In this document: positions 5,440 to 56,788 of the stretch, one piece after another | Layout: each line of letters starts with the position of its first letter | Numbering within the stretch: the first letter of the stretch is position 1 | From: Microgenomates group bacterium Gr01-1014_5 | GTDB lineage: Bacteria; Patescibacteriota; Microgenomatia; UBA8517; UBA10165 | NCBI GenBank assembly: GCA_007376395.1 | Contig: VMGE01000004.1 | Span: 70,431-134,430, forward strand | Direction of reading: 5' to 3' | Length of the DNA: 64,000 bases | Translations under genes and position numbers: made by a program | Notes under the pieces: model-generated | Databases searched by the model: none | Told to the model about the DNA's origin: nothing | The model's input: the letters and a program-made list of their open reading frames with translations, nothing else

Positions 5440-6280
5440 GCGGAGCTTGCTGCTTCGCAGTAAGAAGGTAAAAACAACTGTGACTCCTAACATCCTCTTT
5501 GAAGATTCTGTTGTTTTAGTAGTAGATAAGCCGGCTGGCTTGGTGGTGAATCGCGCTGAGTCTGTAAAAGAACCAACGCTTCAGGATTGGGTTATAAATA
5601 ATTTTCAATTTTCAATTTTCAATTTTCAAGACGGAATAACTGAATTTGAAAAAAGGTCGGGGATTGTTCACAGGATTGATAAAGAGACGAGCGGAGTATT
5701 GCTTGTTGCCAAAACTCCGGAGGCGTTTGTAGAACTGCAAAGGCAATTTAAGGAGCGCGAGATAGAAAAGACTTATATCGCACTTGTCCACGGCAAGTTT
5801 GAGCGCGAGCAGGGGGTAATTAATGCTTCGGTAGGCAGGCTTCCATGGAATAGAGAGCGTTTTGGTATTTTGCCTGGCGGAAGAGAGGCAGAAACCAGAT
5901 ATAAGGTCGTAAAGAATTACGACAAAGTCGCAAGCTCAGCTTATGAATTAAGAATTAAGAATAACGGTAGGGATAAAGCGCATAATTCATTATTCAAGAT
6001 TCATGATTCGTATTCTTTGGTAGAATTTTACCCAAAAACCGGTAGGACACACCAAATTAGAGTACACGCAAAATATCTTCACCACGCCCTGGTTAGTGAT
6101 ACTTTTTATGCCGGCCGCAAAACTTCGCGCCGCGACCGAGAATGGTGTCCGCGTCTTTTTCTCCACGCGGCAAAAATAAGTTTTACCCATCCGGAAACAA
6201 AAGAGAGGGTCGTGATCGAATCTCTATTGCCTGGAGATTTGCAATCGGCATTGTCACACCTCGGAGGCGTAAATCCTTAG
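5411..6280 (+). CDS. RluA-family 23S rRNA/tRNA pseudouridine synthase
   Basis: VVDKPAGLVV, HRIDKETSGVLLVAKT catalytic Asp motif, HQIRVH; start likely downstream of 5411 (overlaps dksA-like stop); contains in-frame heptamer repeat insertion. Confidence 0.8.
   Translation: MRKEKKGRNKRSLLLRSKKVKTTVTPNILFEDSVVLVVDKPAGLVVNRAESVKEPTLQDWVINNFQFSIFNFQDGITEFEKRSGIVHRIDKETSGVLLVAKTPEAFVELQRQFKEREIEKTYIALVHGKFEREQGVINASVGRLPWNRERFGILPGGREAETRYKVVKNYDKVASSAYELRIKNNGRDKAHNSLFKIHDSYSLVEFYPKTGRTHQIRVHAKYLHHALVSDTFYAGRKTSRRDREWCPRLFLHAAKISFTHPETKERVVIESLLPGDLQSALSHLGGVNP
5600..5628 (+). repeat. Heptanucleotide microsatellite (ATTTTCA)x4 inside RluA-family CDS
   Basis: aattttcaattttcaattttcaattttca read directly; encodes NNFQFSIFNFQ insertion. 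Confidence 0.8.
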
Positions 6281-6290
6281 GTGCAAACCT

Positions 6291-6328
6291 AATCCACACC
6301 GGGTGTGGAATAGCTTGGCACATCGGGA
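6291..6328. repeat. Dispersed intergenic element copy A: 21-bp palindrome AATCCACACC-G-GGTGTGGAAT plus GCACATCGGGA
   Basis: Seen directly; second copy at 15044-15081 with identical spacing. Confidence 0.8.
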
Positions 6329-6368
6329 GAACTTGTACTACTTTTACTACTTGTGCTACTTTTAGTTA

Positions 6369-8057
6369 GTGTCAATTTTTCTCGCGGTTAGTATAGGCAT
6401 AATTACTGCGGCTTTCTTCGGCTTCATAGCCCGGCTTTTTCGCCAGCCGCCGATTGTTGGCTATCTCTTTGCCGGACTGGCGCTTGCTTTATTGGGAGTC
6501 TTTAGCGACGATCAGAAACCCCTCTTGCAAACTATGGCACAGCTCGGGGTAACGTTCTTGCTTTTCCTCATCGGATTAGAAATAAACTTGCGGGAACTAG
6601 CCTCAATTGGCAGAGTGGTAATCCTTGGCGGGATAGGGCAGATCTTCTTTACTTCACTTGCCGGTTACTTTATAGCGGCACTTTTAGGATTTAGCACAAT
6701 TGAGTCATTATATATCGCCGTAGCTCTTACTTTTTCTTCCACCATAGTTGTCGTCAAACTGCTTTCTGAGAAAAAAGACCTGGACAGTTTATATGGCAAA
6801 ATAACAGTGGGATTTTTGCTGGTACAGGATATTGCGGCTATCCTCACCCTTGTTTTTCTCTCAGGTTTCCAAACAGCCAGCTTCGAGCCCTTAACTTTCT
6901 TTTGGGTTTTAGTCAAAGGTGTTGGGCTTCTCGCAGTGGTTTACCTTTTGTCTAAATTTGTTTTGACTCGTGTTTTTGACCGGGTTGCTGCGACTTCTGT
7001 TGAGTTGTTGTTTGTCTCGAGCATTGGCTGGATGCTGGGAGTAGCCTCAGTAGTTAGTCTGCCGCAAATTGGATTTACACCCGAGATTGGCGGTTTACTG
7101 GCCGGAGTTGCCTTGGCAAATTCTTCCGCACATTTACAAATAGCCTCACGGGTTAAACCCCTGCGGGACTTTTTTATTACCATCTTTTTCCTGCTTTTAG
7201 GAACCAAAATGGTAGTAGGCTTAAATCCTCAAGTGATAATTCCAGCCTTAATTTTATCAGTATTTGTGGTCGTTGGGGGGCCGCTTATTGTTTTAGGATT
7301 ACTAGGATTATTAGGACACAAGAAACGTACTTCATTTTTATCAGCGGTAACTTTTGCTCAGGTTTCTGAATTTTCTTTAATCCTCATCGCTTTTGGGCGG
7401 AACTTGGGCCACGTTTCGGAGTTTGTAGTAGGGCTGGTAACTTTGGTTGCCGTAATTACTATGATAACCTCCACTTATTTGATCATCAACGGTTATAGAC
7501 TTTATTTAATACTTGCGCCTATTTTGGGAATATTTGAACGCAAGAAAATTCGCGAGACCGCGCTTTCAATAAACCGCGAGTTCGCCGAACACGTTGTCTT
7601 GCTTGGGTGCGACAGGCTAGGCAGAAGAGTTTTGCCGCTTTTAGAGAAAAAGGAAAAGAATGTCGTTGTTATCGATTTTAACCCCAGAGTGGTTTCTGAG
7701 CTTGTAGCCCAAAATCATCAAGCGTATTATGGAGATGCATCTGACATCGAGACTTTAGAGAGTTTGAGTCTTCCCCAGGCAAGGTTAATTGTTTCAACGA
7801 CCGGGAGTCTCGAAGACAATTTAATTGTGCTTGAATATTTAGGCAAACTCGAAAAGCCTCCGCTTTCAATTTTTGCTGCCGCAACTCCCCAAGAAGCCTT
7901 AACCCTTTACGAAAAAGGCGCAGACTATGTAATAGTACCCCAAGTGGCGGCAGGCGACCACCTAGCTCATCTCCTGAGTGTACACGGCATTAATAAAAAC
8001 CACTTCAAAGTACTGCGGGAACGTCACTTCGACCGCCTTGCAAAAGATCGGTTTTAA
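6369..8057 (+). CDS. Kef-type cation:proton antiporter (CPA2) with C-terminal TrkA-N/RCK domain
   Basis: 562 aa, 12-13 TM helices, Na_H exchanger family; C-terminal HVVLLGCDRLGRRV Rossmann (RCK) domain. Confidence 0.8.
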   Translation: MSIFLAVSIGIITAAFFGFIARLFRQPPIVGYLFAGLALALLGVFSDDQKPLLQTMAQLGVTFLLFLIGLEINLRELASIGRVVILGGIGQIFFTSLAGYFIAALLGFSTIESLYIAVALTFSSTIVVVKLLSEKKDLDSLYGKITVGFLLVQDIAAILTLVFLSGFQTASFEPLTFFWVLVKGVGLLAVVYLLSKFVLTRVFDRVAATSVELLFVSSIGWMLGVASVVSLPQIGFTPEIGGLLAGVALANSSAHLQIASRVKPLRDFFITIFFLLLGTKMVVGLNPQVIIPALILSVFVVVGGPLIVLGLLGLLGHKKRTSFLSAVTFAQVSEFSLILIAFGRNLGHVSEFVVGLVTLVAVITMITSTYLIINGYRLYLILAPILGIFERKKIRETALSINREFAEHVVLLGCDRLGRRVLPLLEKKEKNVVVIDFNPRVVSELVAQNHQAYYGDASDIETLESLSLPQARLIVSTTGSLEDNLIVLEYLGKLEKPPLSIFAAATPQEALTLYEKGADYVIVPQVAAGDHLAHLLSVHGINKNHFKVLRERHFDRLAKDRF

Positions 8058-11949: not shown

Positions 11950-12755
11950 ATTTGACTAAAAGGCAAAAATTTGTTGCTGCATCCCTGTTTTTGGCTGCTG
12001 TTTCTTTTTTTGTTCAGTATGCAGATGTTGATTATCGTTATCTTGCTATAGTCGGATTTTCTTTATTAACATTGCTTTTATCGGCTTGGGCTTTAAAGGA
12101 CGGGCTAGGGAAGAGTGCCACACTGCTAACCCTTGTTTTACCGGTATTTTTTACAGCCGGCATCCAGCTTTTTTATTTGGGTTTCGAGTCGAGTAATTTT
12201 TATTTGTCTTTGCCGGAATTCTTACAAATGGGGATAAGGGGATTATTTATTCTAGGGTATGCTGTTGGTTTTTATGCTCTTCTTTTAACCGGCAATATCT
12301 ATAACGTAGCGACAGCGCGCACCATTCAGCTTTTGAGAGCGGCTCACGCGGTCGGGTTTGTTCTTTCCTTGGCAACATGTTTTTTCTTATTTAATTGGCT
12401 GTTATCTTTAAAACTTGATTTTTACGTCAATACTTTTGGAATGGGTATTATTGCCATACCGCTTTTTTCTCAGGGATTTTGGTCAATAGAGCTTGAACAC
12501 AGGTTAGGCCGGGAAGTGCTTTATCTAACAGCCTCTTTAGGTTTAATTGTTGCGGAATTTGCTGCAGTTTTGTCGTTTTGGCCGATAACTGTGCCTGTTG
12601 GCTCGCTGACTTTGACAAGCATTGTTTATATTGGCCTTGGTTTGGGTCAAGCCAAGCTCCAGCAAAGATTATTTGAAAAAACCGTACGGGAATATTTAGT
12701 CGTAGGTCTGCTTGTTTTTTCTGCCATGTTTTTAACCGCTAGATGGGGAGGCTAA
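11946..12755 (+). CDS. Hypothetical polytopic membrane protein
   Basis: 269 aa, ~8 hydrophobic helices. Confidence 0.45.
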   Translation: MNLTKRQKFVAASLFLAAVSFFVQYADVDYRYLAIVGFSLLTLLLSAWALKDGLGKSATLLTLVLPVFFTAGIQLFYLGFESSNFYLSLPEFLQMGIRGLFILGYAVGFYALLLTGNIYNVATARTIQLLRAAHAVGFVLSLATCFFLFNWLLSLKLDFYVNTFGMGIIAIPLFSQGFWSIELEHRLGREVLYLTASLGLIVAEFAAVLSFWPITVPVGSLTLTSIVYIGLGLGQAKLQQRLFEKTVREYLVVGLLVFSAMFLTARWGG

Positions 12756-13523
12756 AACTAATTTTCAATTTAAAATTTTAAATTTTTAATGAGGACATCT
12801 TAACAGGGGAGAGAGGGCTCTAATGACACGTACTATCCTATAATTTATTACCGAGATTTCACGGATTACAACCGATAGTTTTCACGCAAACGCTGAAGTT
12901 GACTGCTAGTAGCCTCAATGAAGAAAACCCGAAAGCCATTTTAGCTAATTTCTAGCCACAAATGATATAGTTTGTACGCAACCACTCACTCTTTCGAGTG
13001 TGGATAAGTTTAATCGTAATTTTTAAGCGAAATAAAGTCACGACGCAAAGAGTCATACTTCAGAAGGGAGTGTGAAGTCTCAAGGCGGGTTGCTGCTATA
13101 TTCTCCTCCGGTTAAAATTGAACAACAAATCTTCTCGAGGAACAGATGTATCCAATCAAGAGAAGTAAATCACTATATGTCGCACAATGATACTTTTGCG
13201 ACGTATAGTGAATCTAGGCAGAGAAGTGCTGATTCGCTCCGCTCGAATTTACAATTCTCATTTTTCAATTTTTATTGATCCTTCTTATTCCTTTTTGTTC
13301 TCTAGAAATACCCTTTATCTTATTTTAACACCTTCCGAACACTACCCGAAATCCACTCCCCTACTATGGGTTGTGTGTAAATTTCTAATATCTAATTACT
13401 AATTTCTAAACTAATAAAAAATGTTGACCTAGAATACTGAAGATGGTTAATTAGTGCTTCTTTCATCCAGACAGGCTTTCTAGGGGTCTACAGGAGCTCA
13501 CTTATTTAGACTTTGGGCGGGGG

Positions 13524-13532
13524 TGATATAAT
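13524..13532 (+). promoter_or_regulatory. Extended -10 promoter (TGATATAAT) 5 nt upstream of ATG, implies leaderless mRNA
   Basis: gggtgatataatcggtcATG. Confidence 0.45.
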
Positions 13533-13537
13533 CGGTC

Positions 13538-14263
13538 ATGTCGATAGAAGACACTTCGTCTTGCCAAGAGAGATGGGAGATATATTCTCAAGAAAGCGCC
13601 TATGTCCGCAAAGCCCAAAAAGAAGTAGATAAAGCAAAACAGCTTCTTCCTTATCGCTTAACAACAGAGTTTCGTGATGCTAAAGGATTAACGTTTGACA
13701 ACGGAAAACCAGCAGAGGTAGTTATAGTTTTTGGAGACATAGAAATTAAAATTCCTTACAGAGCATCCACAACCAGATACAGACAATTGCTAGGGCTTGC
13801 CCTGCCGTTTCATAAGACAGGAATAACTAGAAAGGTTGAACATATAGAAGTTTATGATGATTCAGACCTTGATCGGGCAACAAGAGATAGATATTTTAGC
13901 AACACTTTACCAGACCTTAGGACTTTGATAGCCTTTGGCGGAGATTTTTTCAAACATAACGCCCACAGCTGGGAGCATTTAGCCGATGGTGGAGCTTCTT
14001 TAGCCCCTAATGATCGGGGAAAATATAACGCTGTAAATTTTAGCGTATATATCCTTGATGCCTTGACATTTACGCCTGAAAGCGTAGATTTCCGATTGGA
14101 ATGGGGAAAGTATCCTACTACAGAAAGGCTGAAGATAGACACAAGATATCTTGCAACTCTTGATGGAAAAAGGTTTCTGCATCCACAAACTCAAGACCAA
14201 TGGAGATCTGCCTTAGAACAAAACTATCAACGAGAAAAAGCTAAAAAGCCCCAAAGCCTCTAA
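13538..14263 (+). CDS. Hypothetical protein
   Basis: 241 aa ORF; TGATATAAT extended -10 ends 5 nt before ATG. Confidence 0.5.
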   Translation: MSIEDTSSCQERWEIYSQESAYVRKAQKEVDKAKQLLPYRLTTEFRDAKGLTFDNGKPAEVVIVFGDIEIKIPYRASTTRYRQLLGLALPFHKTGITRKVEHIEVYDDSDLDRATRDRYFSNTLPDLRTLIAFGGDFFKHNAHSWEHLADGGASLAPNDRGKYNAVNFSVYILDALTFTPESVDFRLEWGKYPTTERLKIDTRYLATLDGKRFLHPQTQDQWRSALEQNYQREKAKKPQSL

Positions 14264-14348
14264 TCACTACAGGCTTGTCAAGGGAGATTATATAGGTCTT
14301 GCAATAAAATTCTCCGTTCTACGTAGAGTGATAGAAAAATAACGCGAG

Positions 14349-14357
14349 TGATATAAT
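14349..14357 (+). promoter_or_regulatory. Extended -10 promoter (TGATATAAT) 7 nt upstream of ATG, implies leaderless mRNA
   Basis: gagtgatataattgtaatcATG. Confidence 0.45.
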
Positions 14358-14364
14358 TGTAATC

Positions 14365-14994
14365 ATGAATTTAAGCCGAGACGAACGGCTAACAATTGCT
14401 TCCTACGATAATATGGCTGAGGCATGGGCGCGAGAGCATGCAACTCCTGGGTGGTGGTCTGAAGAAATTGCTAAGTTCAAAGGCTACTTACCTACCGGAA
14501 AAATAATAGAAGTCGGTTCTGGTGGTGGGCGTGACGCTAAAGAGTTGGTTGAAGCGGGTTATGGTTATGTAGGCACAGATGTCTCAAGCGGGTTGTTGGT
14601 CGAAGCGAAAAAGCTTAATCCAGGAGTGGCGTTTTTAAATCAAAGTGTTTACGAATTAGATTTTCCGGACAACAGCTTTGATGGGTTTTGGGCGTCGGCG
14701 GTTCTGCTGCATATTCCCAAAAATAGAATCGACGAGGCTTTGCAATCTTTAGGTAGAGTTGTTCGCGACAAAGGAGTTGGTTTCATCTCGGTCAAGCAAG
14801 GCGAAGGTGAAAGGATGGAGTTTGAAGAAGCTCACGCGCCAAGCGTTCACCAAAGACTATTTTCTTATTACTCAGAGGATGAGTTCAAAGACGTTCTTCT
14901 AAGAAACAACTTCACTACACTTGAGTTTTATCTAAAGCCAAGTGGCGGTAAAACTACCTGGCTGGTATTTTTCGTGCAAGCTCGGAAAATATAA
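14365..14994 (+). CDS. Class I SAM-dependent methyltransferase
   Basis: Motif I IIEVGSGGGRD, motif post-I YGYVGTDVS, motif II SFDGFWASAVLLHIP. Confidence 0.7.
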   Translation: MNLSRDERLTIASYDNMAEAWAREHATPGWWSEEIAKFKGYLPTGKIIEVGSGGGRDAKELVEAGYGYVGTDVSSGLLVEAKKLNPGVAFLNQSVYELDFPDNSFDGFWASAVLLHIPKNRIDEALQSLGRVVRDKGVGFISVKQGEGERMEFEEAHAPSVHQRLFSYYSEDEFKDVLLRNNFTTLEFYLKPSGGKTTWLVFFVQARKI

Positions 14995-15043
14995 AATATC
15001 CTTATGTGCCAAGTCTTCGACCCTGAGCTCAGACCGAAGGGCT

Positions 15044-15081
15044 ATTCCACACCTGGTGTGGAATACGTTTGCACATCGGGA
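15044..15081. repeat. Dispersed intergenic element copy B: ATTCCACACC-T-GGTGTGGAAT plus GCACATCGGGA
   Basis: Perfect 10-bp arms; same 6-nt spacer length to GCACATCGGGA as copy A. Confidence 0.8.
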
Positions 15082-15187
15082 TAATATTGTTGTAAATAAG
15101 GTTGTGTCGCACCACGCACAGCGTGGTATTAGCGACGCTAAGCGTCGCACAATCTTGACCCCCTCCCCTGTTTTGGTGTAGTCTTTT

Positions 15188-15209
15188 CTTGTTACCTATT
15201 ACTTGTCAC
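15188..15209. repeat. CTTGTTACCTRTTACTTGTYAC repeat copy upstream of xerC
   Basis: 20/22 identity to reverse complement of 10332-10353. Confidence 0.6.
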
Positions 15210-15222
15210 TTATTACTAATTT

Positions 15223-16164
15223 ATGGAACTTGCTAAAGCTCCAAAATCAGAACTTGAACGTTTAATTCAGGAGTATCTCGAATATTTGGAAGTTGAAAAG
15301 AACGTTTCTCCCCTAACTGTCCGTAATTATGCCCATTATTTGCGCAGGTTTTCAGGTTGGATGGCTGAGAGAGCGAAGCTTGCAGATATAACCCAGGATT
15401 CTGTTAGACAGTACAGGGTTTACCTCTCCAGGCTGCCGGGAGGAGATAACGGAGCTATCTCGCGCAAGACCCAAGGCTACCACATTATCGCTTTGCGCTC
15501 CTTACTCCGCTGGCTAATTAGAAACGATAGACAGGTGTTATCCCCGGACAAGATTGATTTGCCAAAATCCGAAGGGCATTCAGTCAAATTTCTTAATGGC
15601 GAACAAGTTGACCGTTTGTTAAACTCTCCGTCTTTGTTCGCAATCCAAGGCAAACGCGACAAGGCGATATTAGAGGTGCTCTTCTCTACCGGGCTGCGAG
15701 TTTCAGAGTTAACTAAACTTGATCGCGACAAGGTCGACTTAGGTCACCGCGAGTTTGGCATAATCGGCAAAGGAAACCGCAACCGGGTGGTATTTTTGTC
15801 CGGGCGGGCGGCAGAATGGATTGATAACTATTTAAAATCCCGGGATGATAACTACAAACCGTTATTTATCAGGCACAAAGGCAAAGTTGATCCTTCGACG
15901 TCGGACGAAGAAATGCGCCTTACTCCCCGCTCGGTTCAGCGCATGATTAAAAAATACGCCAGAAAAGTGAATATTCCGGTAGACGTAACGCCCCATGTCA
16001 TGCGCCATTCGTTTGCCACAGACTTACTTATGGCCGGAGCCGATTTGCGCTCAGTCCAGGAAATGTTGGGTCACAAAAACATTTCTACAACCCAAATTTA
16101 CACCCATGTTACGAACAAACAGTTGAAAGATGTACACGAATCGTTCCATGGCCGCGGAAAATAA
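15223..16164 (+). CDS. xerC: Tyrosine site-specific recombinase XerC/XerD family
   Basis: R..HxxR..Y catalytic set: GLRVSEL, HVMRHSFATDLLMAGADLRSVQEMLGHKNISTTQIYTHV. Confidence 0.85.
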   Translation: MELAKAPKSELERLIQEYLEYLEVEKNVSPLTVRNYAHYLRRFSGWMAERAKLADITQDSVRQYRVYLSRLPGGDNGAISRKTQGYHIIALRSLLRWLIRNDRQVLSPDKIDLPKSEGHSVKFLNGEQVDRLLNSPSLFAIQGKRDKAILEVLFSTGLRVSELTKLDRDKVDLGHREFGIIGKGNRNRVVFLSGRAAEWIDNYLKSRDDNYKPLFIRHKGKVDPSTSDEEMRLTPRSVQRMIKKYARKVNIPVDVTPHVMRHSFATDLLMAGADLRSVQEMLGHKNISTTQIYTHVTNKQLKDVHESFHGRGK

Positions 16165-16208
16165 TTAACTCTTTGCAATTAACACCCAACATCTGATATT
16201 ATCAGCAA

Positions 16209-16886
16209 ATGGCCGCAAGAGCACGAAGAGTTATACCCAAGACACAGAAAATAACAAAAAGCGTAGTTGAAAGAGAAGTTGCCGAGGTAGTTCTGACCCC
16301 CCCTTTCCTTTCTCGAAACAAACTTTTCTCAAAACAAGTACTTGTCGGTTTGGCAGTTGTCCTCCTTCTGCTTTTGGTAGTTAACAAAAAACACTGGTTT
16401 GTTCCCGCAACGGTTAACGGTTTGCCAATACTCTCCCCGCAAGTAATTGTTAGACTTTACAGCGATTACCGCTCCCCGGCTGTGAGTGAACTTGTTGACG
16501 AAAGGATAATTATGGCAGAGGCGAAGAAAATGAATGTTTCGCCAAGCCGTGAGGAAATAAAAGCTAGAATGGCAGAACTTGAGACTCAAGTAGGAGGAGC
16601 AGACAGCCTTAATAAATTATTATCACAAGAAGGCACAAGCCGCACTTCATTAGAAAGAAGAATGAGTATGAGGCTAGCCCTTGAGAAAATTTATTCTAAT
16701 GAAGCAACGGTGTCTGCAGAAGAAATAGATGAATTTATAACAACGAACAAAGCTCAGTTGACGGCAAGTGATTCAGCTAGTCAAAAAACAGAGGCCGAAG
16801 CGCTTATTAAACAAGATAAGCTTGGAGCGATAATTAACCAAAAGTTTGCGGAGCTTCGCGAAAAGGCAAATATTAAAATATTCTGA
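16209..16886 (+). CDS. SurA N-terminal-domain-like periplasmic chaperone-like protein with TM anchor
   Basis: N-terminal TM helix, then helical domain resembling SurA_N/PpiD N-domain. Confidence 0.4.
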   Translation: MAARARRVIPKTQKITKSVVEREVAEVVLTPPFLSRNKLFSKQVLVGLAVVLLLLLVVNKKHWFVPATVNGLPILSPQVIVRLYSDYRSPAVSELVDERIIMAEAKKMNVSPSREEIKARMAELETQVGGADSLNKLLSQEGTSRTSLERRMSMRLALEKIYSNEATVSAEEIDEFITTNKAQLTASDSASQKTEAEALIKQDKLGAIINQKFAELREKANIKIF

Positions 16887-16916
16887 GAATATTTTAAGTC
16901 TAACTATTAAAATCTT

Positions 16917-17123
16917 CTAGACCTTTTGTTTTTTTGCTACCTTTTTAATATAGATTTTTGTGTAAAACAGTGGTGTGATTACTGGGAACGCCCAGAAAGC
17001 AAAAAGCCAGACAAGTTTATCTGTGGGATTTTTGAATTTTCGAGACAGAATATCAGACAGTACAAAGTAATATACAAAAGTCGATATCAACACAATAGTG
17101 AAGAACACAATGATATAAAACAT
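16917..17123 (-). CDS. PLDc_N-like small membrane protein
   Basis: Two TM helices with LFAFWAFPVITPLFY motif; start taken at M35 of ORF 16917..17225. Confidence 0.4.
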   Translation of the reverse strand: MFYIIVFFTIVLISTFVYYFVLSDILSRKFKNPTDKLVWLFAFWAFPVITPLFYTKIYIKKVAKKQKV

Positions 17124-17262
17124 AGTTAGGTCTGGAGACGATCCTACCACTTTAGACCCGCTTTCTTCAATTGCTCTAATTAAATTAGAATTAGGTGAGG
17201 GTACATCTGCTTTTGTTAGGTTCACAAATTAAGTAAAGCACTCTTAGGGGTTAGTGTCAACT

Positions 17263-19929
17263 CTAATTTTCTGATTCTACAGGAATTGGTTCGGACTCGA
17301 TTTCCTCTTTGTCTAAAATCGCAACTGCGGCAACTTTGTCTGATTTATCCTTGCCAAAACGCATCAGAATTACTCCTTGGGTAGCTCTGCCCAATTGCGG
17401 AATATTTTTCAAAGGCAATCTGATGACTTGTCCAGAGCGGCTGGTAATAATAATTTGCTCAATGTTTTCCGTAACCATCATGGCGCAGGCCAGTTCACCT
17501 GTTTTGTCTGAGAGTTCTGCAATTTTTACTCCAGACCCGCCGCGTTTTTGTAATGGGAAAGCGACAACAGGAGTACGTTTGCCCAAACCGCGCTCTGTAA
17601 CAACCAGAATGTCACGGAAAAACTTTTTCCTGCGGTCTGTGGGAATATTTTCTTTTTCAGGGAAGACTTCCATGGAAATAACCTGATCTTCCCCTGTCAG
17701 CATAATTCCCCTTACCCCATGAGAGTCCCTCCCCATTGGACGGACATCCCCTTCTTTAAAACGGATTGATTTACCCCGCCGGGAAGCCATAATGACCTGA
17801 TCTTCCCCTGTTGTTTGGCGTACCCAAGCAAGCGCGTCTCCGCGGTCTAGGCGGATGGCAATTAATCCCGAAGTACGTAAGTTTTTGAATTGGGTCAAAG
17901 AAGTTTTCTTTATAGTTCCGTTTCTGGTTGCCATCAAGAGGTATTTTACCTCTGTGCCATCCAGAACGACTACTGCTTCGATGACCTCTCCCTGGTCGAT
18001 GTTAATCAGATTAACGATTGCTTGGCCTTTTGCCTGGCGCGATCCTTCGGCGATTTCCCAAGCACGGGTAGAAAATACCCGTCCGCGGTCGGTAAAGAAC
18101 ATTACCTGGTCGTGAGTTGACGCGGCAACCAGATGCGCGATTTCATCCTCTTCTTTTGTGGTCATCCCAATAACTCCCTTGCCTCCCCTAGCTTGCGATT
18201 TGTAAGTTGAGCGCGGGACGCGCTTAATATAACCGGTTTTAGTGATCATGATTAGGACTTCTTCGCGGGCTACCAAATCCTGCTCTGAGATCTCTCCCAC
18301 CGGCTGCATGTAAATTTTTGTCCTGCGCTCGTCACCATACTTTTCTTTTAAAGCTATAAGTTCGCTGGTTATGAGGCCTAAGATTTTTTCAGGATGCATT
18401 AAAAGATCTGTTAAATGAGCGATTAACTCCTGGATCTTTTTATACTCTTCCTCAATTTTTTCGCGCTCTAGGGCCGAGAGGCGTCTGAGCTGCATGTCTA
18501 AAATTGCCACAGCCTGAATCTCGGTAAATTTGAATTTTTCCATAAGGCTGGTTTTGGCTGTGTCTGAGTCGCGGCTTTTACGGATTGTGGCAATGACTTC
18601 GTCCAAATGGTCAAGTGCAATTACAAGTCCTTCCAGGATGTGTCCCCGCTTCTTGGCTTCTGTGAGGTCATAAATAGAACGGCGGGTAACGACCTTTTGT
18701 CTGTGTTTGACGTATTCAACCAAAATTTGTTTTAAAGCCAGGGTTCTTGGGGTACCGTCAACTAGAGCGACAAAGTTTGCAGGGAAAGTGTTTTGCAGTT
18801 GGGTATGTTTGTAAAGATTATTTAAAACCGACTTTGGCCGGGCGTCTTTTTTAAGTTCGATAACGACTGACATTCCCTTTTGGTCTGATTCGTCTCTTAA
18901 GTCTGAGATGCCGACTATCTTTTTGTCCCGCGCAAGTTCTGCAATTTTAGCAACAAGCAAGGCTTTGTTAACTTGGTAAGGAAGTTCGGAAATCATAATT
19001 CTTGATTTGCCGCGCTCGGCTTCTTCGATCTTTGCCACTCCGCGGACAACAATGGTTCCGCGTCCCGTACCATAAATTTCCGTCATGTGTTTAGCTCCGT
19101 AAATGACCCCTCCTGTTGGGAAATCCGGACCTTTAATATACTTGACGAGCTCTTCTGTGGTGATTTCTGAGTCGAAGTCGGTGTTTGGAGCCACAATTGT
19201 AATGTCTTTTTGTCTCCCTTCTGCAACTGCTAGATCAATCTTTTTAATAGCGAACGTAGCCTCACTGTTCTCGCTTTTTCCGTTTTTTTCTGTGTTCTGT
19301 GTACTACGTCCCTTTTCCTGCGACACAGCGCTACCTTTTTCGATTGTGGCGATAACTGCTTCGACTACTTCGTTAAGATTGTGGGGAGGGATTTTGGTAG
19401 CCATTCCGACGGCGATTCCCTCAGAACCCATAAGTAGAAGGTTGGGCAAGGTTGCCGGCAGATAATTTGGCTCTTTGATTGTGCTGTCGAAATTTTCGCC
19501 AAACTCAACTGTATCTTTTTCGATATCGGCTAAGAGTTCCTGGGAAATTTTGGCCGGGCGTGCTTCTGTATAACGCATTGCAGCCGGTGGGTCACCGTCT
19601 ACCGAGCCGTAATTTCCCTGTCCGTCGACGAGCGGATAGCGCATGGAGAAGTTTTGCGCTAAACGGACAAGAGCGTCGTAAATCGGGCCGTCTCCATGAG
19701 GATGAAATTTTCCCATGGTTTCTCCGACTATTTTGGCAGACTTGGTGTAAGCAGAGGCTGGCGTAAGACCCATTTGGTGCATGGCAAAAAGAATTCTGCG
19801 GTGTACAGGTTTTAGACCGTCGCGCACGTCAGGCAGGGCTCGTGAGACGATAACCGACATGGCATAGTTAAGGTACGATTTTTGTACCTCAGTGGTTATT
19901 TCGACTTGTAGAACTTTACCGATATTCAT
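17263..19929 (-). CDS. gyrA: DNA gyrase subunit A
   Basis: YAMSVIVSRALPDVRDGLKPVHRRILFAM, catalytic Tyr region, C-terminal beta-pinwheel repeats; carries a ~60 aa low-complexity insertion. Confidence 0.95.
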   Translation of the reverse strand: MNIGKVLQVEITTEVQKSYLNYAMSVIVSRALPDVRDGLKPVHRRILFAMHQMGLTPASAYTKSAKIVGETMGKFHPHGDGPIYDALVRLAQNFSMRYPLVDGQGNYGSVDGDPPAAMRYTEARPAKISQELLADIEKDTVEFGENFDSTIKEPNYLPATLPNLLLMGSEGIAVGMATKIPPHNLNEVVEAVIATIEKGSAVSQEKGRSTQNTEKNGKSENSEATFAIKKIDLAVAEGRQKDITIVAPNTDFDSEITTEELVKYIKGPDFPTGGVIYGAKHMTEIYGTGRGTIVVRGVAKIEEAERGKSRIMISELPYQVNKALLVAKIAELARDKKIVGISDLRDESDQKGMSVVIELKKDARPKSVLNNLYKHTQLQNTFPANFVALVDGTPRTLALKQILVEYVKHRQKVVTRRSIYDLTEAKKRGHILEGLVIALDHLDEVIATIRKSRDSDTAKTSLMEKFKFTEIQAVAILDMQLRRLSALEREKIEEEYKKIQELIAHLTDLLMHPEKILGLITSELIALKEKYGDERRTKIYMQPVGEISEQDLVAREEVLIMITKTGYIKRVPRSTYKSQARGGKGVIGMTTKEEDEIAHLVAASTHDQVMFFTDRGRVFSTRAWEIAEGSRQAKGQAIVNLINIDQGEVIEAVVVLDGTEVKYLLMATRNGTIKKTSLTQFKNLRTSGLIAIRLDRGDALAWVRQTTGEDQVIMASRRGKSIRFKEGDVRPMGRDSHGVRGIMLTGEDQVISMEVFPEKENIPTDRRKKFFRDILVVTERGLGKRTPVVAFPLQKRGGSGVKIAELSDKTGELACAMMVTENIEQIIITSRSGQVIRLPLKNIPQLGRATQGVILMRFGKDKSDKVAAVAILDKEEIESEPIPVESEN

Positions 19930-19949
19930 ATCAAATATTAAATTTCAAA

Positions 19950-21959
19950 TTAGACGAGAAATGGTGCCAAAAGTAATGCCACCACGTTTGCCACCTTGAT
20001 CATAGGATTAATTGCCGGGCCTGCTGTATCTTTGTAGGGATCGCCAACCGTGTCTCCTGTAACTGCCGCTTGGTGAGCAACACTCCCCTTTCCTCCAAAA
20101 TTGCCATCCTCGATATACTTTTTGGCATTATCCAAAGCAGCTCCTCCAGTGGTCATAGAAATAGCTACAAAAAGACCGGTAACTATTACCCCGATTAATA
20201 ATCCGCCCAGAGCCGTAGGGCCTAAGAGCAGACCAACGACAACTGGCGCAACAACCGGCAAAAGCGCAGGGACAATCATTTGGCGAAGTGCCGCTTTTGT
20301 CACAATATCTACACAGCGGGCATAATCCGGCCTTTGTGTTCCCTGCATAATGCCTTTTATTTCTTTGAATTGCCGTCTTATTTCAACAACAATCGCCATT
20401 CCGGCTTTACCAACAGCTTCCATGGCAAGACCGGCAAATAAATAAGGAAGGGAGGCTCCGATAAGGATTCCCACAAGAACGTTTGGATCGGCCAGAGAAA
20501 AAACATTTGCCGCGCCTTCTCTGGCTAGTTCTTGTGTATATGCTGCAAAAAGCACAAGTGCGGCAAGACCGGCCGATGCTACGGCATATGCTTTAGTAAC
20601 AGCTTTAGTTGTGTTGCCAACGGCGTCTAAAGCATCTGTAATTTTGCGCACACTCCCCTTTTGTCCCGACATCTCAGCAATTCCTCCGGCATTATCGGTT
20701 ATTGGTCCAAATGAATCAATGGCAACGATGATTCCGGTTAAAGAAAGCATGGAGACGGCCGCAATTGCCACGCCATAAAGCCCTGCCAAGCTAAAAGAAA
20801 GCAGGGTTGCTCCGGCTATTAATAAGATGGGTAGAAAAGTAGACTCCATGGAGAGCGCCAGTCCAGCGATAATATTAGTCCCGTGGCCGGAAACCGAAGC
20901 TTCGGCGATTTTTTTAACAAACCGGCTGTTCTTGCCGGTATAAATCTCGGTTAAAACAACCATGCCGATTGTGACTACAATTCCGATTAACGAAGTCAAA
21001 AACAGTGTCGTGTTGGGTATTCCAGGAATTCTTGGCGAGAAAAAGACGAGCACACCCAAAAGACCCAAGACAGAAAAAACAGCGGTGGCTCCTAACCCTT
21101 GGTAAAGAGCAGGCATAATTCTTCCGCTTTTGGGTAGTTTGACAAAAAAAGTTCCGAGAACCGAGGCAATGAGTGCTACGCTACCCAATAACAAAGGGAA
21201 ATAAATACTTGCGTTTCTTTCTGCAAAAAGCAGTGTGGCTAAAAGAATGGCAGAGACAGTAGTTACGACATATGTTTCGAAAATATCTGCCGCCATTCCG
21301 GCACAGTCTCCAACATTATCCCCGACTAAATCTGCAATGACTCCTGGGTTGCGGGGATCATCTTCGGGAATTCCTGCCTCGATTTTGCCTACCATGTCAG
21401 TTCCCACATCTGCTCCCTTGGTGTAGATTCCTCCACCAAGCCGGGCAAAAACCGAGATTAAGGAACCTCCAAATCCAAGTCCGACTAACGCACCCACAGG
21501 GGATATGCCAATGATGTTTGCAATTAAAATGACTAAGGCTATAGATAAAAGCGCAAGCCCGCCAACTAAGAGTCCTGTAACGGATCCGCCCTGAAAAGCG
21601 ACTTCAAGCGCCTGAGCTAGACCTTTTTTAGCAGCTTGGGTTGTGCGTATGTTTGCTCTTACCGCAACGCTCATGCCAATATATCCGGCGAGGGATGAAG
21701 TAAAGCTTCCGAGGATAAATCCAAGTGCATAGTCTGAACCAAGAGCGATCCATAGAAGTATTGTTAAAACTAATGCCACCAAAGCAACGGTTTTTGTTTG
21801 ACGGCCAAGATATGCCTGGGCCCCTTCAGCTATCGCCTGGGCAATAGACTGCATCTTTTCGTCTCCTGTAGGAAGAGCCAAGATTTTGCGGATTAAAAAC
21901 GCGCTAAAACCCAAAGTTCCTAAAGAGGCAAAGACGGCAAAAGTTACTTCTGGTATCAT
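19950..21959 (-). CDS. hppA: Membrane-bound H+-translocating pyrophosphatase, K+-independent type
   Basis: [39 protein letters not shown]; GNTTKA (Lys) variant indicates K+-independent class. Confidence 0.95.
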
Positions 21960-26117: not shown

Positions 26118-26221
26118 GTTTAATCGAGTATAAACAGCATTTCAACTCGACATACTGATATTTGTTTATATTCTAGTAAGCAAAAAGTTGTACTTTAGCT
26201 AAAAGTCAAATTTAGTTAATT

Positions 26222-26257
26222 TGACCAGCCAACTTGCAATTGCAAGTTGTTTGGTCA
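26222..26257. promoter_or_regulatory. Palindromic operator TGACCAgcCAACTTGCAATTGCAAGTTGttTGGTCA (20-bp perfect core)
   Basis: Upstream of methyltransferase 25287..26117 and downstream of regulator gene. Confidence 0.55.
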
Positions 26258-26845
26258 CATATTAAAGTATTCTTTGTAGGCTTCTTCGTCTTCTAATTGA
26301 CCCACGGTGAGTATTTTGACATTTTCTCCTATATCGTAAAGCTCTCTTAAGAACATTACTACTTCCTCGCAAGGATATGGATAGAGATAAACACTTTTTT
26401 GCAGTTGGTGGAAATTAAGCCTTTTGAGTGTTGTTCTGATGGCTTCTCTTGCGGCATCTTTACCTTTGGGTATGTCATAGGTAATTATTCGCCAGCGTCC
26501 GTCCCATTTTTCAGGTGTGGGTATGGTTAAATCAGCGAGATTGTGTTGAAATAATTTTCTTCTGCCCCGCTGGGTAATTTGTAAAACAAACTTTTCTCCG
26601 TCGTTCCAAATTTTAATATACTTTTTCTTCCTTAACTCTTTTAGCCTTTCCCTTAGCCTTCTTTCATCAAATTCTTCCCATTCCTCTTCTCCCAAGAGGC
26701 TCGCGATATCGTCATAACTTAAAGTTTTTTTAAAAAGTCTGGATAGTCCCGGCGCCATTAAACTTCCGGCGATAAATGCACCCACAGCCGCGATAGCCAA
26801 AATTTGCTTAGCTTTGGGGTACTTTTTCTTTATTTTTCTGAGCAT
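26255..26845 (-). CDS. wHTH plus Cas2/PaaX_C-fold putative transcriptional regulator with N-terminal TM helix
   Basis: WRIITYDIPKGKDAAREAIRTTLKRLNFHQLQKSVYLYPYP resembles Cas2/PaaX C-domain; flanked on both sides by CTTGCAATTGCAAG palindromes. Confidence 0.4.
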   Translation of the reverse strand: MLRKIKKKYPKAKQILAIAAVGAFIAGSLMAPGLSRLFKKTLSYDDIASLLGEEEWEEFDERRLRERLKELRKKKYIKIWNDGEKFVLQITQRGRRKLFQHNLADLTIPTPEKWDGRWRIITYDIPKGKDAAREAIRTTLKRLNFHQLQKSVYLYPYPCEEVVMFLRELYDIGENVKILTVGQLEDEEAYKEYFNM

Positions 26846-26884
26846 GATTAAATAATAATAGGTTTACAAACATTTGACAAGATA

Positions 26885-26900
26885 TCTTGCAATTGCAAGA
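26885..26900. promoter_or_regulatory. Palindromic operator TCTTGCAATTGCAAGA adjacent to TTGACA -35-like hexamer
   Basis: In divergent promoter region between regulator gene 26255..26845 and membrane protein gene 26958..27509. Confidence 0.55.
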
Positions 26901-26957
26901 ATTGTGGGCAAATTAATTAATTTTATTGCTTAAAAGTTGCTATACTTTATTTAGGTA

Positions 26958-46312: not shown

Positions 46313-47539
46313 TTGAGATTTATTACGCGGTTAACTATTCTTAAAATTACCTTTTTTTCAGGGATTTTTTTGCTTCCTTTTATAGTTTGGCCTGCCTCAC
46401 CTACTCCTTTTGAAGTTCCCAGGGTGTGGGTATTTTCCCGCTGGGTTGAATTATTAGTTTTTCTGTTGGTTTTTAATCTTGGAAAAATTCAAAACAAACC
46501 AAATGTTTGGCTTTTATTTCTTACTCTTGCATTTTTCTTAATCGAGGCTGGCGCTTCTTGGTTTGGAGTTGATTGGACAAAGAGTTTAATCGGCAACTAT
46601 TACCGCGCCGATGGCCTTATCACTCTACTGCATTCTGTGATTCTTGTATTTTTCCTCGCTTTATTTTGGACCAAGAGTTATTCACGGACACTGGCTTATG
46701 TTTTTCTTTTTAGCTCTGCTCTGGTTTCTTTTTGGGCGCTTGATGAATTTATTAGCCTGCATTTTTTGAGAAACCTGAGTATTCCTAATTTTTCCGGAGC
46801 AGTTGGCGCTTCGTTTGGCCAGCCTAATTTTTTGTCCGGGTATCTTTTAGTCGGACTCCCCTTCTCGTTTTATGCCTACACCTTAAATAGCGGAGGTTTT
46901 CGTGCACTTGTTAGAATCGGCATTATATTACAAGTCTTGGCTGTCTTTTTAACTATGTCATGGGGTGGCATCCTTGGATTAATTCTGCTGTTGCTTTTTT
47001 ACTTTCTTTTGTCAGGTAAAAAACTAGCAGTCAAAATTTCTCTTGGGTTAGTATTGTCACTGACCCTGGCCGGCGCATTATTTTATTATGCCCAAAGCCG
47101 TCCTAAATTTGTAGCTGGTTTTCAAGAAATCGCTCTTCATCCCCAAAGCAGGGAGCGCATTATTAAAAACACGTTATATGCGTTTAATCTAAAGCCGTTT
47201 GCCGGATGGGGGCGGTCAAATTTTGATTATGCTTTCACGGCCAATCCCAACGACACAAGGTATGGCAGTGATGTTTATGTGGACCGCGCACATTCGGTGC
47301 TGGCTGAGACTGCTATTTCCTCGGGAGTAATAGGCCTTACTGCTTATCTTTCTTTGGCTATTTTTGCGCTTGTATTGATTTTAGTCCGGTTAAGGAAAGG
47401 TAAGGACACTGGTTGGAATAAAGCACTACTAATATCACTACTGCTCTACCTTTTCCACTCACAGACAAACGTTATTTCAATTAATGAAGAATTTTTCTTC
47501 TGGCTCATTGCAGGGATCGTGGCAAGTAATGAGTCGTAA
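46313..47539 (+). CDS. O-antigen ligase (Wzy_C) family membrane protein
   Basis: ~10 TM helices, periplasmic loop with HSVLAETAISSGVIGL Wzy_C motif. Confidence 0.6.
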   Translation: MRFITRLTILKITFFSGIFLLPFIVWPASPTPFEVPRVWVFSRWVELLVFLLVFNLGKIQNKPNVWLLFLTLAFFLIEAGASWFGVDWTKSLIGNYYRADGLITLLHSVILVFFLALFWTKSYSRTLAYVFLFSSALVSFWALDEFISLHFLRNLSIPNFSGAVGASFGQPNFLSGYLLVGLPFSFYAYTLNSGGFRALVRIGIILQVLAVFLTMSWGGILGLILLLLFYFLLSGKKLAVKISLGLVLSLTLAGALFYYAQSRPKFVAGFQEIALHPQSRERIIKNTLYAFNLKPFAGWGRSNFDYAFTANPNDTRYGSDVYVDRAHSVLAETAISSGVIGLTAYLSLAIFALVLILVRLRKGKDTGWNKALLISLLLYLFHSQTNVISINEEFFFWLIAGIVASNES

Positions 47540-47597
47540 ACCCTCTTTTTTAGCTTTCCAAACCGGGTTTGGAAAGCTAAAGTGGAATTCTGAATGG

Positions 47598-48248
47598 TTA
47601 CGTTTTTTTGAAGAATTTACTTTTGTAAATGACGTATGCCGTAATAACAACGACAGCAAAAATAACTAATCCCCAATAAGCATCTTTTGTATAGAGGTTC
47701 ATATAGAATTCTTCACCGGCATAATAAAGTATTGTGTCGGGAAGAAGGGAAATTAAAGTAGCTAAAATAAAGCGAGGGTAACTAATTTTGGAAAGACCCG
47801 CAAGGTAGCTGATAAAATCCATAACCGGGCCGGTTGTAAACCTAAGCACCAAAAAACCAAGAAACTCTGTTCTTGCAGAAAGCTTTTCTTCCCAATGGTG
47901 CAACTCCTGCAAAGGTACAAAACGTTTTACAAAAGGTTCTCTGAACTTTCGAGCTAAAGCAAAGGCGAGACTGGTACCTATAAGCATTCCAAGAGAGGAG
48001 AAAATAAACGACCAAAACCAGCCAAAGGCAGGAAGAAGCGCTAGCGAAACAACTCCGCCCGGCAGAGGCGGGATAACGATAGCCAGTATTCTCCAGAAAA
48101 TTACCAAAAAAGGCGCGAGAAAGGTGTGTTCTTTAGCAAAAGCAATGATCGCGTCAAGGTTTGAAGGAACAAGGAATACAAAGAGAGTCAAAGAAAACCC
48201 AGTCAGTAAAAGGGTTAACAAAGCAAGCCCTTTGGGTTGTTTATGCAC
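47598..48248 (-). CDS. DedA/TVP38 (VTT-domain) membrane protein
   Basis: FLAPFLVIFWRILAIVIPPLPGGVVSLALLPAFGWFWSF VTT signature. Confidence 0.75.
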   Translation of the reverse strand: MHKQPKGLALLTLLLTGFSLTLFVFLVPSNLDAIIAFAKEHTFLAPFLVIFWRILAIVIPPLPGGVVSLALLPAFGWFWSFIFSSLGMLIGTSLAFALARKFREPFVKRFVPLQELHHWEEKLSARTEFLGFLVLRFTTGPVMDFISYLAGLSKISYPRFILATLISLLPDTILYYAGEEFYMNLYTKDAYWGLVIFAVVVITAYVIYKSKFFKKT

Positions 48249-56245: not shown

Positions 56246-56290
56246 CCGCAAATTTTTAATTTTAAATTTATAATTTAAAATGAAATCATA

Positions 56291-56788
56291 ATGTTTAAAT
56301 ATTTAAATACTAAAAATTCAATAAAAATTTCAAATTTCAAATTTCAAATTGGATTTACCCTTATCGAGCTGATGGTGGCAATTACAATTGTGGGAATTTT
56401 GGTCGCGCTTTCTACCTCTGCTTTTCTTGGCGCCAAGAGATCGGCCCGTGACGCCGAAAGGAAAGCAGATTTAGAAGACATCCGCTCAGCTTTGGAGATT
56501 TACCGTTCTGACTGCGGTTTATACCCGCCGGACACTGGAGCTGGCGCTCTGGTTCCCGGAGCCGCGCTTACTGCAACTTGCGCAGGTGCTGTAAATACCT
56601 ATATGTCGCTAGTTCCGCAAGACCCGCTTAAGGATCAAAGCGGTTATGTTTATAAATACACCCGTCTAACCAGCAGTACCTATCGCCTTTGTGCTTACTT
56701 GGAAAACGGCTCGGGTGTGGTCATTGCGTGTGGTAAATGCGATGAGTCAAATGCTGTTGATTGCAACTACAGTGCTGTAAACCCCTAA
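56291..56788 (+). CDS. Type IV pilin-like protein
   Basis: ...KFQIG|FTLIELMVAITIVGIL, ARDAERKADLEDIRSALEIY, C-terminal Cys pair; leader spans AAATTTC repeats so true start uncertain. Confidence 0.7.
   Translation: MFKYLNTKNSIKISNFKFQIGFTLIELMVAITIVGILVALSTSAFLGAKRSARDAERKADLEDIRSALEIYRSDCGLYPPDTGAGALVPGAALTATCAGAVNTYMSLVPQDPLKDQSGYVYKYTRLTSSTYRLCAYLENGSGVVIACGKCDESNAVDCNYSAVNP
56325..56350 (+). repeat. (AAATTTC)x3.7 microsatellite at 5' end of pilin gene
   Basis: aaatttcaaatttcaaatttcaaatt. Confidence 0.8.

Follow-up and report, generated by a model that had tools for sequence, protein, structure and literature searches.

Palindromic repeats dispersed in the genome have been studied extensively in Proteobacteria, Firmicutes and cyanobacteria; for CPR bacteria, full-text literature searches brought up none. 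Intrinsic terminators consist of a hairpin with a stem of 5-14 bp immediately before a U-tract, 3' of a gene on the same strand. Sites of the dif/Xer type may adjoin the gene of their recombinase, as in the pairs difSL-xerS and difH-xerH.

REPs are 20-40 nt long, have a single stem of 5-13 bp with an unpaired GTAG or CGTC tag at one end, are mobile, lie mostly downstream of genes, form families of tens to thousands of copies per genome and are associated with RAYT, a Y1 transposase of the IS200/IS605 type (PMC3733652). Bacterial MITEs include Correia/NEMIS, ERIC and Nezha (PMC3184786). The core of a dif/Xer site is made of two inverted arms of ~11 bp around a centre of 6-8 bp, and there is one such site per chromosome, at the terminus (PMC2958812).

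Here we analysed a window, by which we mean the whole stretch of 64,000 nucleotides under study, whose Xer and Kef homologues are 76-98% identical to metagenome-assembled proteins of Candidatus Blackburnbacteria (Microgenomates, CPR). We read two intergenic sequences of this window, copies A and B, as ~57-nt low-copy palindromic repeats of Blackburnbacteria-like Microgenomates which behave in the manner of REPs and MITEs and supply a hairpin at transcript ends, and we give this reading a probability of about 0.55. The repeat family is previously undescribed; the element itself is of a known kind. Related contigs and loci carry L-numbers as labels; L045 is from Candidatus Woykebacteria and L085, L100 and L106 are from Blackburnbacteria.

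Sequence and fold of the repeat

A repeat finder aligned positions 6289-6331 of the window with positions 15042-15084, the 43 nt in common being 86% identical. A search of the window with the palindrome pattern and up to three mismatches, for which 0.02 chance matches are expected in shuffled sequences, returned only copies A and B and a related hairpin at 47.5 kb. As the initial annotation had described, the palindrome of copy A is AATCCACACC-G-GGTGTGGAAT (6291-6311), with eight perfect pairs and further outer pairs, and is followed after 6 nt (AGCTTG) by the box GCACATCGGGA at 6318-6328; the core at 6290-6328 reads TAATCCACACC-G-GGTGTGGAAT AGCTTG GCACATCGGGA. The palindrome of copy B, ATTCCACACC-T-GGTGTGGAAT (15044-15064), is likewise followed by 6 nt (ACGTTT) and the same box GCACATCGGGA at 15071-15081, the core at 15043-15081 reading TATTCCACACC-T-GGTGTGGAAT ACGTTT GCACATCGGGA. 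Copy A lies, also as described, between an upstream PseudoU_synth_2 gene of the RluA type (rluA) and a downstream Na_H_Exchanger+TrkA_N gene of the Kef type (kef), and copy B is flanked by a methyltransferase gene and a gene for a Xer-type tyrosine recombinase (xer).

The core of palindrome and box is thus as first reported, but the extent given for the element was too short at its 5' side: since the box pairs with a left arm, the true start lies upstream of the palindrome, by ~18 nt in copy A and ~46 nt in copy B. The full copy A (6273-6329, plus strand, 57 nt) is an imperfect palindrome that can form a three-tier hairpin. Its left outer arm ATCCTTAGGTGC at 6273-6284 holds the rluA stop codon TAG (6278-6280), the 5' arm of the middle and apical helices spans 6285-6301, the loop centre is G 6302, the 3' arm spans 6303-6317 and the right outer arm, which is the box, is GCACATCGGGAG at 6318-6329. 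The predicted minimum free energy (MFE) was -23.2 kcal/mol (z -3.2) on the plus strand and -23.7 kcal/mol (z -3.7) on the minus strand, and the covariance-model match covered 6267-6335 with 76.9 bits.

The full copy B (14998-15082, plus strand) has 85 nt, including an insert of 27 nt. Its left outer arm ATCCTTATGTGC (14998-15009) begins 3 nt past the methyltransferase stop codon (14992-14994), the insert (15014-15040) folds into an additional hairpin 5' of the apical palindrome, which occupies 15043-15065 with T 15054 as its loop, and the right outer arm is GCACATCGGGAT at 15071-15082. The fold was branched, with an MFE of -34.2 kcal/mol (z -4.3), and the covariance model matched 15025-15088 with 41 bits. 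A pair of small hairpins, CACCACGC-ACA-GCGTGGT and AGCGACGC-TAA-GCGTCGC, was seen between copy B and the xer promoter at 15097-15148; it is conserved in L088 and L100 and missing in L089 and L090.

The third and shorter relative, AGCTTTCCAAACC-G-GGTTTGGAAAGCT at ~47552-47578, has no defined strand. It retains the middle and apical helices of the family, without the outer arms and the box, and occupies the spacer of the convergent genes 46313-47539 (plus strand) and 47598-48248 (minus strand). The covariance model matched it at 47536-47591 (23 bits, E 6e-4), and its fold had an MFE of -22.9 kcal/mol and a z of -4.7.

Alignment of the copies with RNAalifold revealed that the box, CACAUC-G-GG, is able to pair with the 3' arm, and the box is therefore a direct repeat of the 5' arm CACACC-N-GG. 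When the flanks were extended, the box was found to pair also with an upstream segment ATCCTTA(G/T)GTGC in most of the well-preserved copies. This form of the left arm occurs in A, B and L088, with TTCCTTATGTGC in L090, and a second form, ATCC(C)GA(T/C/G)GTG(C/T), occurs in L073, L077 and L079. Because the left arm was absent from the search pattern, its complementarity to the box constitutes independent evidence. The consensus of the long palindrome is ATCCCGATGTGC-AAAGCTATT-CCACACC-N-GGTGTGG-AATAGCTTT-GCACATCGGGAT. Three helices are stacked in it: an outer helix in which (A)UCC..GUGC pairs with GCAC..GGGA(U) and whose 3' strand is the box GCACATCGGGA, a variable middle helix in which AAGCUAUU pairs with AAUAGCUU, and an apical helix CCACACC-N-GGUGUGG that is invariant in full copies.

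Of the 16 aligned copies, 8 had the long hairpin, and its architecture was the same on either strand. In the alignment of these eight copies 80% of the cells were paired, as against 33-49% when the partner was slid by 1-3 columns. Well-preserved copies folded at -23 to -34 kcal/mol with z from -3.2 to -6.3, and the degenerate copy of L100 reached a z of only -1.9. Orientation is weakly defined since the element is nearly symmetric; in L079 each side carries a box, and the covariance model scored both strands of the element.

No Rfam family matched the element even at E values up to 10, the best local matches being 13-15 bits against thresholds of 39-90, and a known RNA family was rejected on this ground; tRNA was the sole match in the Rfam scan of the window. 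Covariation, which the initial annotation had named as a check, was no higher than in column shuffles and not statistically significant, also in the 8-copy alignment, and for this reason it does not separate a palindrome of the DNA level from an RNA structure. Compensatory changes were observed at 47.5 kb (CACACC/GGTGTG to CAAACC/GGTTTG) and in L077 and L090 (TTCC/GGAA to GTTC/GAAC), and the outer helix of L088 carries one C:G to T:A double change relative to the window. These changes favour selection for pairing and are too few for a statistical decision. The sequences of the apical helix and of the GCAC...GGA arms are themselves conserved across lineages, which would not be required of a mere terminator and is a hint that a protein recognizes them, possibly the one by which the element is copied.

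Occurrence in related genomes

The initial annotation had considered that A and B might be the only copies and that related genomes might lack them. On the contrary, ~20 distinct further copies came to light in contigs of low GC, among them those of Woykebacteria (L045) and Blackburnbacteria (L100, L106 and L085), and the copy upstream of xer is kept in relatives. When 185,579 species genomes were scanned with a strict pattern, 59 matches were obtained, 58 of them chance or coding matches (e.g. cysteinyl-tRNA synthetase genes, Gemmatimonadota), and the only real one was Candidatus Woykebacteria L045; the strict pattern misses diverged copies such as those of L088-L090 and L100. A relaxed pattern gave 26 matches in metagenome contigs, 18 of which lay in low-GC contigs (0.36-0.50) and represented ~11 distinct copies, L061 (GC 0.50) being one of the 18 and having no features of the element. 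The relaxed pattern had no match in viral contigs, and a phage origin was rejected accordingly.

The covariance model R1, built from eight full-length copies and run on the window with filters off, returned exactly three significant sites there (A, B and 47536-47591). It also matched in L100/L101, L105 and L106/L107 and found no copy in 40 kb of L095 and L098. The densities were three copies in the 64-kb window, one in 21.7 kb of L100 and one in 6 kb of L106. Further degenerate or partial copies were recognized by simple pattern searches in L077, L084 and L074.

Copies were found in either orientation, with the motif on the strand of the downstream gene in ~12 of 14 loci and antisense to both neighbours in L076 and L085. 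Five copies (L045, L081, L082, L089 and L090) lie in divergent spacers, where there is no upstream gene to terminate. Comparison of the flanking genes, which the initial annotation had also proposed, revealed no common function downstream (kef, xer, DUF218, purD, ispG, HIT).

Some loci were peculiar. Between purN and purD of L074, ~60 nt upstream of the palindrome, there are 4-5 tandem units TATTTCCACACC with a period of ~14 nt, which may be iteron-like or a product of replication slippage. At 695-753 of L060 an element-like sequence (apical helix and right arm) lies in frame inside an M24 peptidase ORF and has CTACTCAAGGCACATCGG in common with L077. Four contigs end in the element or right beside it (L087 start, L093 end and L105 start, Logan unitigs; L082 end, a JGI metagenome contig), and the L081 and L082 sequences have the right side in common and diverge from within the 5' arm. 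Such ends reflect either repeat-induced branching of the assembly or real rearrangement breakpoints.

The gene order rluA, kef, yebC, DUF5656, xer and gyrA (minus strand) is syntenic in three Blackburnbacteria genomes. The closest relative (L100-L103, with a Kef 98% identical) does not have copy A, and neither does L104 (83%); the rluA stop and the kef ATG are separated by 5 nt in L100-L104 versus a spacer of 88 nt with the element in the window. The surplus of the window at this junction amounts to ~103 nt (6261-6363), namely 12 nt of flank, the 57-nt hairpin and a 34-nt tail. Relative to L100 and L104, the tail is found together with the hairpin in the window only; in the window, rluA ends at a new stop codon in the left arm and kef starts with GTG, not ATG. 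A related copy of type A lies 680 nt upstream of kef in L105. No target-site duplication was detected, as there was no direct repeat at the junctions when window positions 6261-6368 were compared with the empty sites of L100 and L104, the boundaries being blurred by local divergence. Identity near the junction was lower than in kef and the identity profiles were patchy; given this and the lack of a duplication, transposition and recombinational replacement are indistinguishable at copy A.

Five genomes carry the copy upstream of xer: the window, L088 (whose Xer is 98% identical), L100 (with the 98% identical Kef), L089 (Xer 84%), in which the copy is degenerate, and L090 (Xer 79%), in which the hairpin is intact with compensatory changes. 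The upstream neighbour of this copy varies among the five genomes, and the region upstream of xer is empty in two others, L095 and L098/L099. At a third site, between purC and HIT, L085 has the element, and L106 lacks it upstream of HIT. Divergence between the window and L088 is ~14% in the element and, at third codon positions, 26% (xer) and 40% (methyltransferase gene), which suggests that the element is under moderate constraint.

Promoters and upstream regions

The initial annotation had joined to the motif a tail that it took to be similar in A and B. This resemblance did not hold: the local alignment score was 12 (P ~0.06 against composition-preserving shuffles), the stretch concerned in copy B lies ~105 nt from the box and does not adjoin it, and the comparable pyrimidine-rich sequence is the 5' region of xer. 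Nothing 3' of GGGA was conserved in the alignment of the copies. The tail of copy A (6330-6368, plus strand) is the kef promoter region and falls outside the repeat family. It carries an extended -10 element, TG-C-TACTTT (TG at 6354-6355, TACTTT at 6357-6362), which precedes the GTG start at 6369 by 6 nt, and two unrelated genes, 9330 and 53891, also have the arrangement CTTGTG-N-TACYTTTA 6-7 nt ahead of their starts. Because the arrangement recurs before unrelated genes and nothing 3' of GGGA is conserved, the tail is a kef promoter with a start of the leaderless type and not part of the repeat.

Many genes of the window have, 5-8 nt ahead of the ATG, a hexamer resembling TATAAT (often TGnTATAAT) and lack a Shine-Dalgarno sequence (e.g. 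the starts at 13538, 14365, 16209, 28937 and 42993), and most of its genes appear from these sequences to be leaderless. A shared operator plus promoter, one of the options first offered for the motif, was not borne out, as no -10/-35 lies at a fixed distance from it. Hand alignment of 12 copies likewise excluded a sigma-70 promoter built into the motif (no -10/-35 at fixed offset), and sigma-54 (TGGCAC-N5-TTGC) or ECF (GGAAC-N16-CGT) promoters (no fixed-offset element in the 12 copies, GGAA not conserved).

Two other kinds of repeats were noted in the window. AT-rich phased repeats (AATTTTCAATTTTCAA...) occur in upstream regions at 5590-5630, 12750-12800, 13236-13286 and 56250-56350. Since the first of them falls within the rluA ORF as mechanically called, rluA probably starts downstream of 5630; the called RluA ORF had no match in an exact look-up, the true start probably differing from the ORF start. 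A 42-nt repeat (26219-26260 and 26872-26913) with the palindrome CTTGCAATTGCAAG flanks a gene with a PaaX/Cas2-like domain (26255-26845, minus strand), and its two copies are probably the operators of that gene itself.

Interpretation of the repeat

Among the options of the initial annotation, a REP/MITE-like element gave the best fit, the copies being dispersed, present at filled and absent from empty sites, found in both orientations and in part degenerate, but strict membership in the REPs or the MITEs did not hold. We propose that in each full copy the three-tier hairpin would be formed by one strand by itself, which is most plausibly RNA transcribed from the upstream gene, and that the hairpin may serve as a transcript-end structure (terminator, 3' stabiliser or insulator) separating adjacent transcription units. 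Between close relatives, copies are gained, lost, truncated and internally duplicated, like selfish DNA of the REP/MITE type, and they could be copied through transposition in trans or through recombinational transfer.

Copies overlap a stop codon or begin 0-14 nt past it in A, B, L088, L106, L076 and L085; in A, L045, L079, L085 and L106 a leaderless promoter follows 0-30 nt after the copy ends. The promoters that follow the element include that of kef, TTGACA-16-TAAAAT-6-ATG in L106 and TGTATAAT in L079. A U-rich tract follows GGGA in L045, L069 and L075, copies A and B have no U-tract after the stem, and a scan with a terminator consensus recovered only the apical stem, on the minus strand. 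The copies in divergent spacers, the missing U-tract of A and B and the conservation across lineages argue against the transcript-end hairpin being the whole story.

A hairpin module specific to CPR bacteria and recognized by a protein as single-stranded DNA or RNA would be a bolder reading, and we hold it to be improbable. A dedicated factor, either a mobiliser of the HUH type or an RNA-binding terminator or processing factor, would read the apical helix and the GCAC...GGA arms, and the element would act as a portable cassette of terminator and promoter. If true, the joint arrival of element and leaderless promoter, as at rluA-kef, would split operons and rewire expression in minimal genomes.

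It is unlikely that the element is instead an operator in double-stranded DNA, with four half-sites CACAYC-N-GG (<- -> <- ->) bound by a dimeric or tetrameric regulator or by a nucleoid protein. The box does repeat the 5' arm directly, both being exactly CACACCAGG in L090, the apical sequence is conserved across lineages, the tandem TATTTCCACACC units beside the L074 palindrome are iteron-like, and copies adjoin promoters, five of them in divergent promoter regions. However, the distance to the promoter ranges from 0 to ~100 nt, the downstream genes are without a common function and sites come and go between close relatives. The symmetric changes in both arms at 47.5 kb and in L077 and L090 would weaken a dimer site, and the middle helix varies in sequence with its complementarity kept.

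A substrate of a single-strand-specific HUH/tyrosine transposase (REP-RAYT or IS200/IS605-like), moved in trans without target-site duplication, is quite unlikely. It would agree with a hairpin and a conserved box at fixed spacing, the lack of a duplication at the one filled/empty pair, the occurrence of both orientations, the in-frame intragenic sequence of L060 and the mobility and mostly downstream location of REPs (PMC3733652). On the other hand, the GTAG/CGTC tag is absent, the box is base-paired within the long hairpin and not single-stranded, the copy number appears far under that of typical REP families and the xer copy stayed put across genomes whose Xer are 79-98% identical. No transposase, RAYT, HUH or Y1 gene was found by Pfam among the ~45 ORFs of the window or in the fetched loci, and neither contained an IS with matching ends.

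An independent structured RNA that is restricted to these bacteria, either a small RNA or a cis-regulatory leader, is very unlikely. Of the RNA motif first suggested, the stable hairpin stands: the fold recurs with z down to -6.3, ~12 of 14 loci have it on the strand of the downstream gene and the copy upstream of xer is conserved. Against it, no Rfam match and no significant covariation were obtained, the element has near symmetry, with scores on both strands, and in L076 and L085 both neighbours have the opposite sense to it. Moreover, the element would lie outside the mRNAs of leaderless genes because it is upstream of their promoters. An RNA motif in this sense is still a slim possibility.

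Under the reading as a REP/MITE-type repeat with a transcript-end hairpin, small hairpin repeats would be carried and exchanged even in the small, tightly packed genomes of CPR bacteria. At rluA-kef, one copy coincides with the change from a 5-nt operon junction to a hairpin and a new leaderless promoter, and the junction offers a concrete handle on the remodelling of transcription units in yet-uncultured organisms. The repeat breaks metagenome assemblies of these organisms, and its analysis also revealed a probable dif site and chromosome terminus.

The dif-like site and the presumed chromosome terminus

A dif-like site, TCACTATATGTCGCACAA-TGATAC-TTTTGCGACGTATAGTGA, was found at 13170-13211, with arms of 18 nt (89% complementary) and a spacer of 6 nt; its inner 11-nt arms, ATGTCGCACAA and TTTTGCGACGT, agree with the definition of dif. 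It lies 2 kb upstream of the single XerA-type gene, the product of which passes the NCBIfam XerA model NF040815 (226.9 bits, cut-off 220), and corresponding sites are found 0.45-2 kb upstream of xer in L090 (513-540), L095 (9548-9571) and L098 (9126-9149). From its sequence and position, 13170-13211 is probably the dif site of this CPR chromosome. A dif half-site, GTCG(C/T)ACAAT(C/G)TTG, overlaps the -35 of the xer promoter at window positions 15144-15157 (GTCGCACAATCTTG) and recurs in L088 (1871), L089 (1236), L090 (~2482), L095 (9899) and L098 (9953). It covaries with the dif arm, with C in the window and T in L090 and L095, which suggests that Xer may regulate its own gene.

Cumulative GC skew peaks at ~14000-20000 and gene orientation changes from plus to minus at ~17 kb, as at a terminus. 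Past the switch, gyrA, an H+-PPase gene and gyrB lie on the minus strand; the gyrA of L095 (14888-18214) has an intein (PF14890) and that of the window does not. The dif-like site and AT-rich phased repeats lie within 780 nt (12756-13537) that have no ORF and no Rfam match and contain one perfect DnaA-box 9-mer (12999-13007, minus strand).

That the repeat itself is the dif of the single Xer recombinase, with A and B flanking an integrated element of ~8.7 kb that exploits Xer, is extremely unlikely: copy B lies ~140 nt upstream of the only xer gene and near the switch of GC skew and gene orientation at ~17 kb, A and B are direct repeats and several contigs break inside the element, but the palindrome has a 1-nt centre where a recombination core would have a spacer of 6-8 bp, at least three copies occur in the window and others elsewhere are far from xer, and the A-B interval is ordinary syntenic chromosome in relatives and therefore not an integrated island. 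Together with the separate canonical dif-like site, the A-B synteny and the 1-nt centre effectively refute it.

Relative to the DnaA box (TTWTNCACA), the arms TAATCCACA, TATTCCACA and nTTTGCACA each agree at 8/9 positions, and the window has 26 DnaA-box-like 9-mers versus 14 expected, a mild enrichment; the bases past CACA (YC-N-GG) are conserved as strongly as the 9-mer itself. A cluster of DnaA boxes and sites of the parS, matS and Ter types, considered by resemblance only, were held to be less likely given the terminus-like position at the skew maximum, the same orientation of A and B on either side of dif and the conservation beyond the 9-mer.

Comparison with known systems

Like difSL-xerS and difH-xerH, copy B is immediately upstream of a single xer gene and near the presumed terminus; unlike them, the element has a 1-nt centre and multiple copies, and a separate canonical dif-like site exists.

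With intrinsic (Rho-independent) terminators the element shares a GC-rich-based hairpin right after stop codons, a U-run in L045, L069 and L075 and, for the 47.5-kb copy, a position between convergent genes. It differs from them in its interrupted stem of 25-27 bp, in the lack of a U-tract in A and B, in its conservation across lineages and in the copies of divergent spacers.

Like REP/BIME sequences, the copies are short extragenic palindromes capable of forming hairpins, mostly just 3' of coding regions and in either orientation, which vary between strains and are occasionally intragenic; roles in termination and mRNA stabilisation have been proposed for REPs. Unlike REPs, the unit has ~57 nt and three stacked helices with 25-27 positions per arm, of which only the apical 21-27 nt would fit a REP, and no GTAG/CGTC tag is seen in the alignments, GTAG occurring solely within the L077 stem. 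In the sequences covered the copy number appears very low (~1 per 20 kb, none in some relatives), no RAYT was seen in the window and, unlike that of described REPs, the host is a CPR lineage.

The element differs from MITEs in that the one filled/empty pair compared has no target-site duplication, in that 57 nt is at the extreme small end of their sizes and in that its innermost part, not the termini only, is most conserved. On the contrary, the inverted outer arms ATCC..GTGC / GCAC..GGAT, the absence of an ORF, the length of less than ~400 bp, the long stable stem-loop and the filled versus empty orthologous sites (rluA-kef, HIT and upstream of xer) are those of a MITE. Like MITEs, the repeats can bring or abut promoters and terminators and can remodel operons.
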